Origin: Patescibacteria group bacterium
GTDB lineage: Bacteria > Patescibacteriota > Patescibacteriia > Buchananbacterales > UBA6539
Assembly (NCBI GenBank): GCA_041649675.1
Contig: JBAZMQ010000002.1
Location: 65,920 to 129,919, forward strand
Direction of reading: 5' to 3'
Length of the DNA: 64,000 bases
Shown: piece after piece, positions 3,115 to 54,847 of the stretch
Layout of the letters: every line of letters begins with the position of its first letter
How positions within the stretch are numbered: the stretch's first letter is position 1
Notes under the pieces: generated by a model
The model's input: only the letters and a program-made list of their open reading frames with translations
Databases searched by the model: none
What the model was told of the DNA's origin: nothing
Translations under genes and position numbers: made by a program

Positions 3115-3261
3115 GTTTGTTTCTCCCTTCGGAAACCTATGTTTGCCACTGCTCTCCGTGGCTCGAGATTTTCTCTGAATTTCAACAATATTGGTACTAA
3201 AACAATAACATGATAATATATCATTTATTAAACCAAATGTCAATAATAAAATACCTAAAAA

Positions 3262-3298
3262 TAAACTCCCGCCTAGAGGAGCTTATTTTTTGAACTTA
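3262..3298. terminator. candidate bidirectional terminator / repeated GC motif (AAACTCC-cgcctaga-GGAGCTT flanked by A-run and T-run)
   Basis: Hairpin with A-rich 5' flank and T-rich 3' flank, about 70 nt downstream of the nrdJ stop on the minus strand. Contains CCCGCCTAGAGG, which is also present at 2143-2154. Confidence 0.35.
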
Positions 3299-3364
3299 TA
3301 TCCAGTTAATTAGACTGCTATACCAAATGAGAATAAACTTACCTACTGCTTTTTCTATACCAAA

Positions 3365-37589: not shown

Positions 37590-37673
37590 TTTTTTAGAAT
37601 TACGAATTATGAATTATGAATAAGGGAAGGAATGACCTGCCTAATTCCTAATTCTTAATTCCTAATTCTTTCT

Positions 37674-38620: not shown

Positions 38621-38757
38621 CAAAGGCGGATGCGCCTCTGGCGCAAGCTGAGCTACAGACCCCCTCTATTTTAAATTATACTGATTCGCCGACTTCGGTG
38701 CGGGGTAAAAAAAGAAAGCGTTTGGGTTCACGATACACCTAAATATTACGCCTTGGT

Positions 38758-38898
38758 GTATGCCCGGTAGTAGTCCCTCGCCTAAATTATTTTTTGGCCA
38801 GAGAATAAACTTTTTTGCTCAAGTTAAAAATAATATATTACCCTAGTAGTAAAAGTAATTACCCCCTTAAGAGGGATCACTACCGGGTATGCCCGGTA
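38758..38898. repeat. imperfect inverted repeat / long hairpin (arms 38758-38779 and 38871-38890; second arm also forms a local 7-bp palindrome TACCGGGtatgCCCGGTA)
   Basis: Arm 1 ATGCCCGGTAGTAGTCCCTC and the reverse complement of arm 2 TACCCGGTAGTGATCCCTC match 17/19; spacer about 90 nt; no ORF. Confidence 0.55.
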
Positions 38899-38915
38899 AT
38901 TTTAACTATTAACTT

Positions 38916-38971
38916 TTAGCTTACAGCTATTAGATTTCATTAAACCTGCTAAAAGCTATAAGCTAACAGCT
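38916..38971. repeat. palindromic element (TTAGCTTACAGCTATTAG ... TAAAAGCTATAAGCTAACAGCT); the 3' arm is a 22-nt exact copy of 47633-47654
   Basis: Stem about 15/17 with a 16-nt loop. The same palindrome family flanks the four-helix-bundle gene at 47279-47635. Confidence 0.6.
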
Positions 38972-42647: not shown

Positions 42648-42675
42648 AATTTAAAATTAAAAGTAATCAACATAG

Positions 42676-42699
42676 CGCACTAATTTTAAGTGCGTTTTT
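42676..42699 (+). terminator. rho-independent terminator after pth (CGCACT-aatttta-AGTGCG + TTTTT)
   Basis: 6-bp stem, 7-nt loop, 5-T run ending immediately before the ATG at 42700. Confidence 0.5.
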
Positions 42700-43098
42700 A
42701 TGTTAAACCAAGAATCAACCAAAAACTTAAAACCCAAAAGTCAAAACCACAACTTAAATCTTAAAACCAGGTGCTTTATCTTTTCTATTAAAATTATAAA
42801 ACTAACAGAAAAGCTGCCTCCAAAAAAATGTTACTGGATAATCGCTGACCAACTAATCAGATCAGCCACTAGTATTGGGGCTAATATTGCCGAGGCTAAA
42901 GGCAGTAATTCAAAAAAAGACTTTACTCACTTTTATCAAATCTCCTTAAAGTCGGCCAATGAGAGTAAGTATTGGCTTAATCTTTTAATCGCCTTGACCT
43001 TAACCGATAAAGACGAATTAAAAGAACTTCTTGACGAAAATATTCAACTAGCTAATATCTTAGCCGCCAGCATTTTAACCATGAGAAACAAGAGATAA
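42700..43098 (+). CDS. four-helix-bundle protein (TIGR02436 / '23S rRNA intervening sequence protein' family), 5' end uncertain and possibly degenerate
   Basis: C-terminal 100 aa (IIKLTEKLPPKK...IADQLIRSATSIGANIAEAKGSNSKKDFTHFYQISLKSANESKYWLNLL) match the family. The annotated N-terminal 26 aa are low-complexity, are encoded by the left inverted repeat, and the ATG abuts a terminator T-run. The true N-terminus is therefore doubtful. Confidence 0.55.
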   Translation: MLNQESTKNLKPKSQNHNLNLKTRCFIFSIKIIKLTEKLPPKKCYWIIADQLIRSATSIGANIAEAKGSNSKKDFTHFYQISLKSANESKYWLNLLIALTLTDKDELKELLDENIQLANILAASILTMRNKR

Positions 43099-43140
43099 CT
43101 CCTGGTTTTGGGTTTTAAGTTTTTGGTTTTAAGATTTTAA
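42723..43140. repeat. inverted repeats flanking four-helix-bundle gene 1 (left about 42723-42778; right about 43101-43140; unit CTTAAAACC(C)AAAA)
   Basis: 42723-42744 ACCAAAAACTTAAAACCCAAAA is the exact reverse complement of 43107-43128. Confidence 0.7.
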
Positions 43141-43143
43141 AAA

Positions 43144-43280
43144 AGTAGCTTCCAAGACCCTGTCTATCAGCGTAAGGCACCGTACCGAATGCTCAGTAGA
43201 TACCTTAGCTTTTGGCTAATTGGGAGAAATAGGAGGGTTAATCTCACGTTCGCCGCTGACAAACAGGGTTTTAAAAGCTA
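43144..43280. repeat. IR-bounded structured element upstream of dprA (arms 43144-43171 and 43253-43280)
   Basis: GTAGCTTCCAAGACCCTGTCTATCAGCG and the reverse complement of CGCTGACAAACAGGGTTTTAAAAGCTAC pair at about 21/28. The 80-nt interior contains a TTAGC-ttttg-GCTAA hairpin and a purine-rich GGGAGAAATAGGAGGG tract. Confidence 0.5.
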
Positions 43281-43373
43281 CCTCAAATTAATAAAATAAC
43301 TTATCACTTTCTATCATAAATGTCAAGGGGGGCCAAAATAATGGCTAAAATATATAACTACTATCAATAATAT

Positions 43374-45920: not shown

Positions 45921-47196
45921 TTTCCAAAATTATTACCAGGCCGTAGAATACTTAGAATCTTTGTTTAATCTACCGCAAGATGATTATTTTATAAAAAAAA
46001 CCGGCCGGAAAATTTTTTTGCAGCGCCTAAAATATCTCTTAAAACTGCTTGGCAACCCCCAACTGGGTTTTAAATATATCCATATTGGCGGCACTTCCGG
46101 CAAGGGATCGGTAGCCACCATGATTCATTCCGTTCTGACTGAAGCGGGCTACAATGCCGGCTTGTTTACTTCGCCTTTTTGCACCACTTCAATTGAAAAA
46201 ATTAAAGTTGGCAACTTATTAATTAGCCCAAACGATTTTGTAAAAATTGTTGAAAGGCTAAAGCCAGCCGTTGATTTGTGCTACCAAAAATCACCTTGGG
46301 GCCATCCGTCATATTTTGAAATTTTTACCGCCATTGCCTTTTTATATTTCAAACAAAAAAAATGCGACTACGTTGTTTTGGAAGTCGGCTTGGGCGGCCG
46401 CTTTGATGCCACTAACGTTATCCCGCCACCAAAAATTACAGTCATTAATTTAATTGATTTTGATCACACCGATGTTTTGGGCAAAACTTTAAAACAAATT
46501 GCCAAAGAGAAAGCCGCCATCATTAAACCAAAAACAATATTTTTTACAACCAAGCAAAGTAATTCAGTCTTAAAAATATTGAAAACCACCTGCCAAAAAA
46601 ATCGGGCGGAATTTAATCTAATTTCCGATTTTAGCCAAAGCTATAAACTGGGTTTATTAGGCAAGCACCAACAAAAAAATGCCGCTTTAGTCGTTGCGGT
46701 TTGTCAAAAATTAGATATCAAAAAAGACAAAATTTTAACCGGTTTAAAAAAGGCCCAACTCCCCTGTCGGCTGGAAATTATTCAAAGAAAACCACTGGTA
46801 ATTTTGGACGGCGCCCATAATCTTTCCAAACTAAAAACCACCGCCGATTTTATCAAAAATTTGACATATCGTAAATTATATCTTATTATTGCCTTAACTA
46901 ACGAAAGAAATCCCAAAGAAATCTTTGGCCAGATTGAATCATTAGCCGATCATATTTTTTTCACTCGTTACCAGGCAAGGGTAAAAAAGTGTTACCCGCC
47001 AAAATTGTTGGCCAAAAAACTCAAATCTAAAAAGCCAAACGAGATATTTTTAGACGCAAAAATGGCATTAGCCAAAGCCAAAAAATTGGCAAAATCAAAT
47101 GATTTAATTTTAATCACTGGCTCGCTTTATTTAGCCGGTGAACTAAGAAATAATTGGCGGAGCGAAAAAAAAATCTTACAGCAAAGGACAACTTAA
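45910..47196 (+). CDS. folC: folylpolyglutamate synthase / dihydrofolate synthase (Mur-ligase family)
   Basis: HIGGTSGKGSV P-loop variant typical of FolC, a Mur-ligase middle domain, and a length of about 430 aa. Confidence 0.8.
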   Translation: MKNNFQNYYQAVEYLESLFNLPQDDYFIKKTGRKIFLQRLKYLLKLLGNPQLGFKYIHIGGTSGKGSVATMIHSVLTEAGYNAGLFTSPFCTTSIEKIKVGNLLISPNDFVKIVERLKPAVDLCYQKSPWGHPSYFEIFTAIAFLYFKQKKCDYVVLEVGLGGRFDATNVIPPPKITVINLIDFDHTDVLGKTLKQIAKEKAAIIKPKTIFFTTKQSNSVLKILKTTCQKNRAEFNLISDFSQSYKLGLLGKHQQKNAALVVAVCQKLDIKKDKILTGLKKAQLPCRLEIIQRKPLVILDGAHNLSKLKTTADFIKNLTYRKLYLIIALTNERNPKEIFGQIESLADHIFFTRYQARVKKCYPPKLLAKKLKSKKPNEIFLDAKMALAKAKKLAKSNDLILITGSLYLAGELRNNWRSEKKILQQRTT

Positions 47197-47235
47197 AAAA
47201 TATTACTGTCAACATAGCGCAACCTCATAATTAAT

Positions 47236-47660
47236 CAGCTGTTAGCTTTTAGCTGATAGCTTATAGAAAGGTTAAGCTATGTACATCCAATCGTTTAAAC
47301 AATTAACTGTTTGGCAAAAATCAATTATTCTGGTTAAAGAAATTTACCTGCTCACTCGTTGTTTGCCCAAGGAAGAGTTATATGGCTTAACTAGCCAAAT
47401 GAGAAGATCGGCAGTATCTATCCCTTCCAATATTGCTGAAGGCAAGAAACGCAAAACCAAAAAAGATTTTATTCAATTTTTAAGAATCGCTGACGGTTCG
47501 GCTGCCGAGCTAGAAACTCAAGTAATGATTGCCAAAGATTTATATCCTGACCTTAACTATTCAAAAATTGAATCCTTACTCGAAGAAGTTCAAAAAATGC
47601 TGATTACAATAATTAAAAAATTGGAAACTAACTAAAAGCTATAAGCTAACAGCTACCAGC
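47236..47660. repeat. inverted repeats flanking four-helix-bundle gene 2 (left 47236-47266 CAGCTGTTAGCTTTTAGCTGATAGCTTATAG; right 47633-47660 TAAAAGCTATAAGCTAACAGCTACCAGC)
   Basis: AGCTGTTAGCTT (47237-47248) is the exact reverse complement of 47643-47654. The right arm is identical to 38950-38971. Confidence 0.7.
47279..47635 (+). CDS. four-helix-bundle protein (TIGR02436 family), full length
   Basis: 118-aa ORF; LTVWQKSIILVKEIYLLTRCLPKEELYGLTSQMRRSAVSIPSNIAEG is the canonical family N-terminus. Confidence 0.75.
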   Translation: MYIQSFKQLTVWQKSIILVKEIYLLTRCLPKEELYGLTSQMRRSAVSIPSNIAEGKKRKTKKDFIQFLRIADGSAAELETQVMIAKDLYPDLNYSKIESLLEEVQKMLITIIKKLETN

Positions 47661-47666
47661 TAACTT

Positions 47667-49907: not shown

Positions 49908-49925
49908 TAAAATTTTTAAGCTAAA

Positions 49926-49953
49926 CAAAAAATCCCCGAATCGGGGATTTTTT
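49926..49953. terminator. bidirectional rho-independent terminator (AAAAAATCCCCGAATCGGGGATTTTTT)
   Basis: 6-bp GC-rich stem ATCCCC/GGGGAT flanked by an A-run and a T-run, 20 nt after the topA stop. Confidence 0.65.
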
Positions 49954-49973
49954 GTATCATTGACAAAATTGTT

Positions 49974-53864: not shown

Positions 53865-54635
53865 TTAAATATAATTTTCTTGTAAGATAATTTCCCGGGC
53901 CAAATCTTCATAAGCTTTGCCACCAGCCGAACGCGGATCGTATGACAAAATTGTTTGGCCAAAACTTGGTGATTCGGTCAAACGAACATTTCGGGGAACA
54001 ATGGTATCAAAAACGCGATGGGGAAAATGTTGCTTGAGCTCGTTTAAAACCTGACTTGAAAGTTTATTGCGCTTATCATACATCGTCACTACCGCTCCCA
54101 AAATGTTTAATTCCGGTTTTAAATTTTCTTTAACCAAACTGATGGTATTGAGCAGTTGGCCTAAGCCCTCTAGCGCCAAATATTCGGCCTGAACCGGCAC
54201 TAATACTTCTTCGGCTGCCACCAAACCGTTTAAAGTTAACAAGTCCAATGATGGCGGACAATCAATCAAAATATAGTCATAGTCATGTTTAACCTCAAGC
54301 ATGGTTTGAGCCAACCGAAATTCCCGATTTTCCAAGCCTACTAGCTCCACCCTGGCCCCAGCCAAATCCGGTGTGGCCGGTGCCACCTTGTAGCCCTGGT
54401 GATTAGTACCTTGAATAATTTGCCTGAAAGAGATTGGCTCAACTAAAGAGTGATATACTCCCTTTTCTAGGCTTGAGTGGTCAATACCCAGCCCGGAAGT
54501 GGCATTAGCCTGTGGGTCAATGTCAACTAATAAAACAAACTTACCTAACCAAGCCAGATAAGCCCCTAAATTGACAGCGGTGGTGGTTTTACCAACTCCC
54601 CCTTTTTGATTGACAATTGCAATGGTTCTCGACAT
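53865..54635 (-). CDS. parA: chromosome partitioning ATPase ParA/Soj
   Basis: Deviant Walker A KGGVGKTTTAVNLGAYLA. Confidence 0.9.
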   Translation of the reverse strand: MSRTIAIVNQKGGVGKTTTAVNLGAYLAWLGKFVLLVDIDPQANATSGLGIDHSSLEKGVYHSLVEPISFRQIIQGTNHQGYKVAPATPDLAGARVELVGLENREFRLAQTMLEVKHDYDYILIDCPPSLDLLTLNGLVAAEEVLVPVQAEYLALEGLGQLLNTISLVKENLKPELNILGAVVTMYDKRNKLSSQVLNELKQHFPHRVFDTIVPRNVRLTESPSFGQTILSYDPRSAGGKAYEDLAREIILQENYI

Positions 54636-54780
54636 GCCCCGTAGTAGAAATTTGATTTCTTAATAATTAAAGAAAGATTTATTTACAGTCTTAAGTCTTA
54701 ATTCTAACTATTAATTACCCATTAGTACCCCTATTTAGCTCAACAAAGATAACATATCAAATTTTCACTACGGGGCATAT
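54632..54780. repeat. inverted repeat pair spanning the parA start codon (arms 54632-54654 and 54758-54780)
   Basis: ACATGCCCCGTAGTAGAAATTTG versus the reverse complement of CAAATTTTCACTACGGGGCATAT; about 19/23 match; spacer about 100 nt. Confidence 0.45.
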
Positions 54781-54847
54781 CATTATTATAATAAAAAAAT
54801 CGCCTTTCGGCAATTCAATTATAACTAAAATAAAAATTATTGTTATC

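Follow-up and report, generated by a model that had tools for sequence, protein, structure and literature searches.

How two small genes for four-helix-bundle proteins come to lie between the housekeeping genes of a Patescibacteria chromosome, each inside the loop of a palindrome, is the question raised by the stretch of DNA analysed here (contig JBAZMQ010000002.1). This 64-kb stretch, referred to as a whole as the window, is core chromosome of a metagenome-assembled genome (MAG) of the Patescibacteria, or candidate phyla radiation (CPR). The original prediction was of a small mobile gene cassette, reminiscent of the intervening sequences (IVS) of rRNA genes, which targets a palindromic site. 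The observation holds up and is non-random; the IVS-like mobile cassette that was predicted is supported, whereas the palindromic target that was supposed to pre-exist is not. The probable answer is that the two genes, here gene 1 and gene 2, are hairpin-bracketed cassettes of the 23S rRNA IVS type, inserted between the cistrons of housekeeping operons. The two cassettes comprise the following parts:

42700-43098, plus strand: gene 1, encoding a 132-aa PF05635 protein of a subfamily other than that of gene 2
42717-42769, plus strand: left arm of gene 1, made of A/C-rich AAAACNN units, lying within the open reading frame (ORF) and encoding a K/N/Q-rich N-terminal tail
43101-43138, plus strand: right arm of gene 1, G/T-rich
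47197-47666, plus strand: whole gene-2 cassette, a 470-nt block between the folC stop codon (47194-47196) and the topA ATG (47667)
47237-47266, plus strand: left arm of gene 2, an array of about four degenerate heptamers, NTAGCTN
47279-47635, plus strand: gene 2, encoding a 118-aa PF05635/TIGR02436 four-helix-bundle protein
47632-47664, plus strand: right arm of gene 2, made of CTANNAG units, beginning within the stop codon and stopping 2 nt short of the topA ATG

The PF05635 profile matched the two genes at E = 7e-38 and 6e-26 and found no third member in the window. Gene 2 scored 129.5 bits and gene 1 scored 91.1 bits against a curated cut-off of 33.8, and the TIGR02436 scores were 132 and 104 bits, respectively (cut-off, 24); the two proteins are 33% identical. 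The RxxxSxxxNxxE motif published for PF05635-type IVP proteins is present, with R43, S47, and E54 invariant and N51 nearly invariant in the family alignment. Among solved homologues, 2GSC was matched at E = 1e-22 and 2RLD at 4e-7; each of these structure entries holds five chains, and Xanthomonas XCC0516, the 2GSC molecule, has been described as a homopentameric toroid. Gene 1 lies between pth and dprA and gene 2 between folC and topA, each co-oriented with its neighbours; no rRNA was found in the window, and both cassettes lie between protein genes.

As predicted, a palindrome holds gene 2 in its loop: AGCTGTTAGCTT (47237-47248) and 47643-47654 are exact reverse complements, and the full arms (47237-47266 and 47632-47664) are 87-88% complementary. 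The arms of gene 1 are entirely different in sequence, with 42717-42739 complementary at 23 of 23 positions to 43106-43128, and gene-1 homologues in two comparison loci, L200 and L201, show the same layout, in which the left arm lies inside the ORF (L-numbers denote fetched comparison loci; those chosen as TopA relatives were drawn from 80 species). The two arm pairs are the two strongest long-spaced (366-372 nt) inverted repeats in the 64 kb, and in RNA folds the arms close both cassettes (z = -3.1 for gene 2 and -5.3 for gene 1). The L200 locus, from another Patescibacteria genome, contains two gene-1-type cassettes 1.3 kb apart (813-1214 and 2501-2884), both with G/T-rich right arms, in a setting of type IV secretion system and pilin-like genes.

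Comparison with related genomes showed the gene-2 cassette to be a single unit that is present or absent between close relatives. In the closest relative (L009; TopA 80% identical), the folC stop codon is separated from the topA ATG by 2 nt, and in L010 (TopA 78% identical), the two genes overlap as TAATG; neither junction has a palindrome. Given these junctions, the block 47197-47666, which comprises both arms, the ORF, and a 13-mer in the leader, is an insertion. L009 lacks gene 1 and a further hairpin at 38913 as well. Gene-2 homologues with 72 to 84% identity were found in L003 upstream of leuS, in L007 (named Liptonbacteria) within a pilus operon, and in L008 (named Portnoybacteria) after holB; all three are bracketed by NTAGCTN heptamer arrays, and a Calothrix plasmid copy, 48% identical to gene 2, has TTAGCTG arms. 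Judged from these sequences, the arms belong to the cassette and not to the host site, and arms and ORF evidently move as one unit into unrelated sites and lineages.

Some copies appear to be degenerating. A homologue 74% identical to gene 2 (L089, 2501-2851) has intact TAGCT arms and an in-frame TAA at codon 40, so the ORF may be decaying while the arms persist. On plasmids gamma and alpha of Nostoc PCC 7120 (L197 and L198, respectively), identical four-helix-bundle genes have right arms of CTGCCYT heptamers and no matching left arm, and the end of a transposase gene (ISL3-family in L197) lies 77 nt upstream; this arrangement suggests that insertion of an insertion sequence (IS) element truncated the Nostoc cassettes.

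The arms are a property of the family at large. A metagenome scan with the family alignment yielded 80 further loci, and each gene was assigned an arm score, defined as the best local pairing between its 5' and 3' flanks. The score lay above that of every shuffle at 65 of 74 family loci, and a score of at least 30 was found for 74% of 73 diverse members versus 2.5% of 200 control ORFs from the same loci (Mann-Whitney p = 3e-24 for the difference in arm score between family and control ORFs) and for 23 of the 27 family members on viral contigs. Median arm length is 31 nt, and the arms directly adjoin the start and stop codons; their period is 7 nt in 22 cases and 8 nt in 19, with units such as AAGGRTTC, AGGGACT, AGGTAAC, and AAGAAGCGN and a median of about 3.7 units per arm (range, 2 to 15). 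Host G+C content spanned 33 to 65% at the 13 loci inspected. The unit family tracks the protein cluster or subfamily; gene-1 relatives, for example, have in common A/C-rich arms whose translation gives a K/N/Q-rich N-terminal tail. Nearly all neighbouring genes are unrelated: the 46 upstream genes fall into 43 homology groups and the 41 downstream genes into 41. The family itself is very large, 21,791 clusters at 50% identity matching gene 2 at E <= 0.001.

Orientation and polarity were both biased. Of 46 upstream genes, 42 had the orientation of the cassette, the median distance from stop codon to left arm being 12 nt, and 27 of 41 downstream genes were co-oriented with it; from the upstream co-orientation and the short gap, the cassette most likely has no promoter of its own and is transcribed by read-through from the host operon. 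The left arm had more G than C in 50 of 54 cassettes, and Shine-Dalgarno (SD)-like 4-mers averaged 3.8 per left arm versus 0.09 per right arm, a fixed polarity that favours a role tied to one strand and exerted in the transcript. The arms were also considered as three-frame stop insulators; stops in all three frames were found in 18 of 54 arms versus 4.9 expected from shuffles, yet this is only a third of the arms, the enrichment is partly a by-product of periodicity, and the idea was dropped.

A 13-mer, TCAACATAGCGCA, precedes both genes. As predicted, it occurs twice and only twice in the window, at 42667-42679 and 47209-47221, ending 20 nt before the ATG of gene 1 and 57 nt before that of gene 2; the original prediction had placed the copies 2-10 nt off. 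The two leaders contain the following:

42667-42696, plus strand: 13-mer and terminator-like hairpin, directly 5' of gene 1
47209-47221, plus strand: 13-mer of the gene-2 leader, where 47212-47225 pairs with 47269-47282 and covers the SD sequence and AUG

In the gene-1 leader, the outer pairs of the hairpin (AACAUA/UAUGUU) extend beyond 42696 and cover the gene-1 AUG, and the hairpin is the top terminator-like site in the region. With one mismatch allowed, about 1.3 Mb contained five independent copies of the 13-mer. Three precede gene 1, gene 2, and the L003 cassette, a fourth precedes a short-loop element at L009 8442, and the fifth lies at L009 6976. All five form the 5' strand of a predicted hairpin whose 3' strand overlaps an AUG. 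Four of the five stand at the 5' edge of such elements, in agreement with the proposal that the 13-mer marks cassette junctions, but the copy at L009 6976 has no cassette, so the 13-mer is not a strict junction mark. It is absent from the gene-2 relatives in L007 and L008.

Homology between gene 2 and the L003 cassette is unbroken from the 13-mer through the ATG, and the same leader fold is predicted for both, with one compensatory A:U to G:C change between them; in both, the 13-mer helix is also predicted to enclose a local hairpin formed by the left arm. Over the 73 nt of leader and left arm, the two are 88% identical (counted from the sequences), and the ORFs have a dN/dS of 0.08 at a dS of 1.4. 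Taken together, these values indicate that both the gene-2 protein and its flanks are constrained, the protein being under purifying selection. The 13-mer is element-associated in this lineage and part of a cassette leader that is predicted to occlude the start codon, and because the 13-mer helix and the long arm-arm stem cross, the two are likely alternative folds. A role for the 13-mer as a promoter was rejected, a sigma-70 consensus scan having found no promoter-like site at either copy.

In the proposed mechanism, the cassette consists of a short leader, a left arm, the PF05635 ORF, and a right arm; each arm is an array of degenerate 7- or 8-nt units, and the two arms are inverted relative to each other and adjoin the start and stop codons. 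If the analogy to rRNA IVS holds, the arms would pair in the read-through transcript to form a stem of about 30 bp, and RNase III, as in the Coxiella IVS, would cut this stem, releasing the ORF-containing loop and leaving the flanking host cistrons functional. Such non-polar excision would account for the tolerance of insertions before essential genes such as topA; the cassettes directly precede essential genes whose own SD sequence is displaced, the topA ATG lying 2 nt past the right arm.

The closest known systems are the ORF-containing 23S rRNA IVS, as found in Coxiella burnetii, Leptospira, Brucella, and Xanthomonas and in the rRNA insertions of CPR bacteria, which have been reported to carry the PF05635-type ORF family as well. 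In Coxiella, the IVS is 444 nt long, has a terminal stem of 28 bp, carries an S23p ORF in its loop, and is cleaved by RNase III in mid-stem. The cassettes are likewise elements of about 410-470 nt with a terminal-repeat stem of about 25-30 bp and a sense-oriented PF05635 (S23p) ORF in the loop, and they share the sporadic distribution of rRNA IVS, with presence or absence varying between relatives. Unlike rRNA IVS, they have an mRNA operon as host transcript and no rRNA location, their arms are tandem arrays of 7-8-nt units preceded by a start-codon-occluding leader, and their ORF is under purifying selection, whereas that of Coxiella is decaying. The cassettes are described here as working like IVS elements but are not classed as rRNA IVS, the defining rRNA location being the only structural feature that does not match. 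The predicted IVS-like mobile cassette in an intergenic, protein-coding context is borne out by the insertion between folC and topA and by this Coxiella-like anatomy.

Besides the ORF-carrying cassettes, the window and its relatives contain solo hairpins, which have arms and no ORF:

38913-38971, unstranded: solo hairpin of the gene-2 arm family, with arms at 38913-38933 and 38949-38969, a 15-nt loop, and no ORF
37596-37670, unstranded: second solo hairpin, with GAATTAN heptamer arms, between the stop codon of a GDPD gene and the start codon of a signal-peptidase gene, both on the minus strand
L021 9921-9998, L024 9913-9988, L066 9915-9994, L085 9881-9986, and L073 5421-5504: pre-topA solo hairpins

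The 22-mer TAAAAGCTATAAGCTAACAGCT is exact at 38950-38971 and 47633-47654, with 0 matches expected by chance; the predicted sharing of the right arm between these positions holds and extends to 23 of 23 nt. The copy at 38950-38971 is the right arm of the 38913 hairpin, which is absent from the orthologous L009 spacer. What had been described as an empty copy of the palindrome at 38916-38971 is thus an ORF-less hairpin of the gene-2 arm family and unlikely to be an unoccupied target site; it either arose by deletion or represents a non-autonomous copy. At the GDPD/signal-peptidase junction, L009 has a TAGCT-type solo hairpin.

When inverted pairs of periodic segments were sought across 1.5 Mb of loci, the cassettes were recovered along with many hairpins that lack an ORF and lie precisely where, in Patescibacteria operons, one gene's stop codon meets the next start codon. 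In at least five Patescibacteria lineages, an ORF-less hairpin with 7-9-nt periodic arms ends immediately 5' of the topA start codon. Triple TAGCT-type arrays were found at 17 sites in 1.67 Mb, 12 abutting a four-helix-bundle gene and 5 solo, the latter including one in L009 and one in L010. Three states of the pheS-pheT junction were found: it is empty in L087 and L040, holds a solo hairpin in L021, and holds an ORF cassette in L024 and L029.

The short-loop element at L009 8442-8672 looks like an intermediate form. It has a 13-mer hairpin, an ATG, an A/C-rich left arm, and a G/T-rich right arm; the arms are of the gene-1 type (33 nt, 85% complementary, with 104 nt between them), and the element resembles an internally deleted gene-1-type cassette. 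Its 41-codon ORF (L009 8488-8613) had no Pfam hit, matched the gene-1-homologue profile at E = 2.7, and returned only itself from the database, and homology could not be shown for it as a four-helix-bundle remnant. In a Kuenenbacteria MAG (L013 5560-5635), the topA gene has an in-frame low-complexity insert of CCCAAAC/CTAAAAT units that encodes QTPNPKPQTNLKSKIQNLK; this insert resembles a gene-1-type arm and lies inside the coding region.

Several points weigh against reading genes 1 and 2 as mobile IVS-type cassettes. Synonymous sites are saturated between copies, and recent transposition is not documented. Among the window ORFs scanned against Pfam, no reverse transcriptase, transposase, integrase, recombinase, or nuclease was found, and the cassettes themselves carry no recombinase, reverse transcriptase, or nuclease. 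Stem formation and RNase III cutting are argued from the resemblance to rRNA IVS; pairing within the predicted stems is incomplete (77-88% complementary), the mismatches falling at degenerate unit positions, and these mismatches showed no excess of sense-strand G:U-compatible changes (59 versus 57), a test of RNA-level pairing that is confounded by the multiple registers of tandem arms. At L009 6976, the orthologous pth 3' site has the 13-mer hairpin and no cassette. Finally, close relatives have different unit families at one and the same junction in three examples:

pheS-pheT junction: L021 versus L024 (TopA 91% identical)
pre-topA junction: L085 versus L073 (TopA 94% identical)
GDPD/signal-peptidase junction: the window versus L009 (TopA 80% identical)

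These differences suggest site preference, hot-spot replacement, or concerted turnover of the arrays.

A tentative alternative, which is compatible with the cassette reading, is that the arms are binding sites: the protein pentamer would recognise the 7-8-nt units, as RNA or DNA, in the arms flanking its own gene and in solo hairpins, either for autoregulation or as the specificity factor that spreads ORF-carrying and ORF-less copies. The unit family co-varies with the protein subfamily, as this proposal requires, although simple co-inheritance predicts the same co-variation equally well. Solo hairpins of the same family lie within a few kilobases of the cognate gene in the window and in L024, L107, L136, L141, L003, and L092, and arm polarity is fixed relative to the ORF. 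The five chains per entry of 2GSC and 2RLD and the toroid of XCC0516 fit this proposal, the homologue Avd binds nucleic acid together with the reverse transcriptase of diversity-generating retroelements (DGR), and the heptamer arrays that precede Nostoc start codons await a binding partner. Against it, the arms of CPR cassettes lack the purine bias seen elsewhere, and the number of units per arm has no peak at five, so that the simple notion of five units for a pentamer was rejected. A bolder form of the idea, that PF05635 pentamers are sequence-specific readers of 7-8-nt arrays and that cognate arms and solo hairpins make up an autonomous/non-autonomous selfish system, is offered as a conjecture that is possible but doubtful. 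If it is true, operon junctions and rRNA helices in many phyla have been colonised by a selfish array system, which would also account for the long-unexplained heptamer arrays of the short tandemly repeated repetitive (STRR) type before start codons in cyanobacteria and other bacteria.

The model of the original prediction, in which intergenic palindromes pre-exist, a mobile ORF enters the loop, and 38913-38971 is an unoccupied target, is unlikely. Periodic solo hairpins are indeed common at Patescibacteria stop/start junctions, including the position before topA in at least five lineages; the pheS-pheT junction occurs in three states (empty, solo hairpin, and ORF cassette); sister genomes differ in unit family at one junction; and rRNA IVS occupy the apical loops of rRNA helices. 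The empty folC-topA sites of L009 and L010, however, have no palindrome. Moreover, the arms travel with the gene, and the arm family accompanies the protein subfamily across sites, hosts, and phyla, which would be unexpected for host-site sequence, and a four-helix-bundle gene adjoins 12 of the 17 TAGCT-type arrays found in 1.67 Mb.

Improbable, too, and somewhat more so, is a DNA-level explanation in which the arms are the terminal inverted repeats of a miniature transposon, with the transposase elsewhere and the ORF as passenger. Inverted repeats, ORF-less copies, and presence/absence differences do resemble the relation between miniature inverted-repeat transposable elements (MITEs) and autonomous elements, and a possible 5-nt direct repeat, AACTT, stands at both ends of the gene-2 block. 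This ambiguous AACTT, the only candidate target-site duplication found, overlaps an arm unit and may be due to chance. Dozens of unrelated arm sequences would require dozens of transposases, and no transposase was found near the cassettes examined in detail except in Nostoc, where IS elements appear to truncate the cassette. The orientation bias and arm polarity, in addition, point to a constraint at the transcript level. That the hairpins are ordinary host terminators or regulatory hairpins, with the position of the genes incidental, is very improbable, for although they are located at gene ends and the gene-1 13-mer hairpin is the best terminator-like site of the region, TAGCT-type (TTAGCTTAYAGCT-like) arrays occur at only two loci in the 64-kb window and are not the ubiquitous terminator motif that would have spoken against the prediction, canonical terminators here have GC-rich stems with T runs (e.g., 49910-49970), and the arms found for 74% of the family versus 2.5% of controls contradict such a reading.

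Other known systems share single traits with the cassettes. The DGR protein Avd has a homologous four-helix-bundle fold and pentameric assembly, and the bAvd Pfam model matched at E = 1.4e-6; the scores are far under the cut-offs (22 versus 80 bits for NF033474 and 29 versus 40 for bAvd Pfam), and with these scores and no reverse transcriptase among the window ORFs scanned, an identity as DGR Avd was rejected. The Correia elements or Neisseria miniature insertion sequences (NEMIS) and the enterobacterial repetitive intergenic consensus (ERIC) are, like the solo hairpins, short inverted repeats at junctions that fold as RNA hairpins, and Correia hairpins are RNase III substrates; they differ in having fixed, non-periodic terminal repeats and no ORF-carrying parent of the cassette type. 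With regard to MITEs, the solo hairpins have inverted arms, and same-family copies occur within loci, but no clear target-site duplication was found, only the possible AACTT at gene 2. Integron cassettes, too, consist of a promoterless small ORF and an imperfect palindrome and are inserted in co-orientation, whereas the cassettes described here have no integrase or attI, have palindrome halves on both sides of the ORF, and are scattered through housekeeping operons; given the flanking halves and the lack of an integrase among the window ORFs scanned, this identity was rejected as well. Searches of Rfam at gathering and permissive thresholds found no known RNA family at the cassettes, the solo hairpins, or a conserved spacer RNA of the window.

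The heptamer arrays of cyanobacteria and Beggiatoa (STRR) share the heptamer unit with the arms, and cyanobacterial plasmids hold family members with such arms; these arrays differ in that they are not known to be associated with four-helix-bundle genes or with inverted pairing. In Nostoc, heptamer arrays of 3-8 contiguous units have been reported directly before start codons, with no binding partner identified. The STRR sequences that Mazel and co-workers described in 1990 may resemble the arms. The Nostoc arrays look like the solo arrays found here, which is a lead and not a result.

The literature searched contained no paper on free-standing family members as tandem-repeat hairpin cassettes, an absence that is no proof of novelty. 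PF05635 is a very large family of unknown function, met so far mainly as the ORF of rRNA IVS and as a relative of DGR Avd. Free-standing PF05635 genes built like IVS, in which arms, ORF, and sometimes the leader move together, would recast the family as cargo or driver of a general hairpin cassette able to live in any transcript. IVP genes of the family have been reported between the cas genes cmr2 and cmr3, and this association would be explained as that of an intercistronic hitch-hiker. Heptamer arrays that have so far lacked an explanation gain the four-helix-bundle protein as a candidate partner, two predictions can be tested (RNase III processing and arm-specific binding), and a class of simple-repeat hairpins that shape CPR operon junctions is brought to notice.

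The window as a whole includes ftsAZ, a ribonucleotide reductase gene, hisS, der, pth, dprA, folC, topA, relA, and parAB. A single ORF of 6,854 codons fills 10814-31378 on the minus strand and is read as encoding a giant surface protein; the ORF that follows it (1,109 aa) has pilin-like and Ig-like domains. The spacer from gene 1 to dprA contains a non-coding element of about 137 nt with a rod-like structure (43145-43281), which is conserved in L009 (7029-7165), with 5 compensatory changes among 34 predicted pairs and no Rfam match. A conserved non-coding stretch beside tRNA-Val (38690-38760; L009 about 3235-3300), aaaaagaaagcgtttgggttcacg...ggtgtatgccc, is common to the window and L009 and on the minus strand resembles a hairpin plus T run. 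The longest inverted repeat of the window (54631-54662 and 54750-54781; 32 nt, 84% complementary, 87 nt apart) is non-periodic and adjoins a tRNA-Met/Met/Leu cluster.

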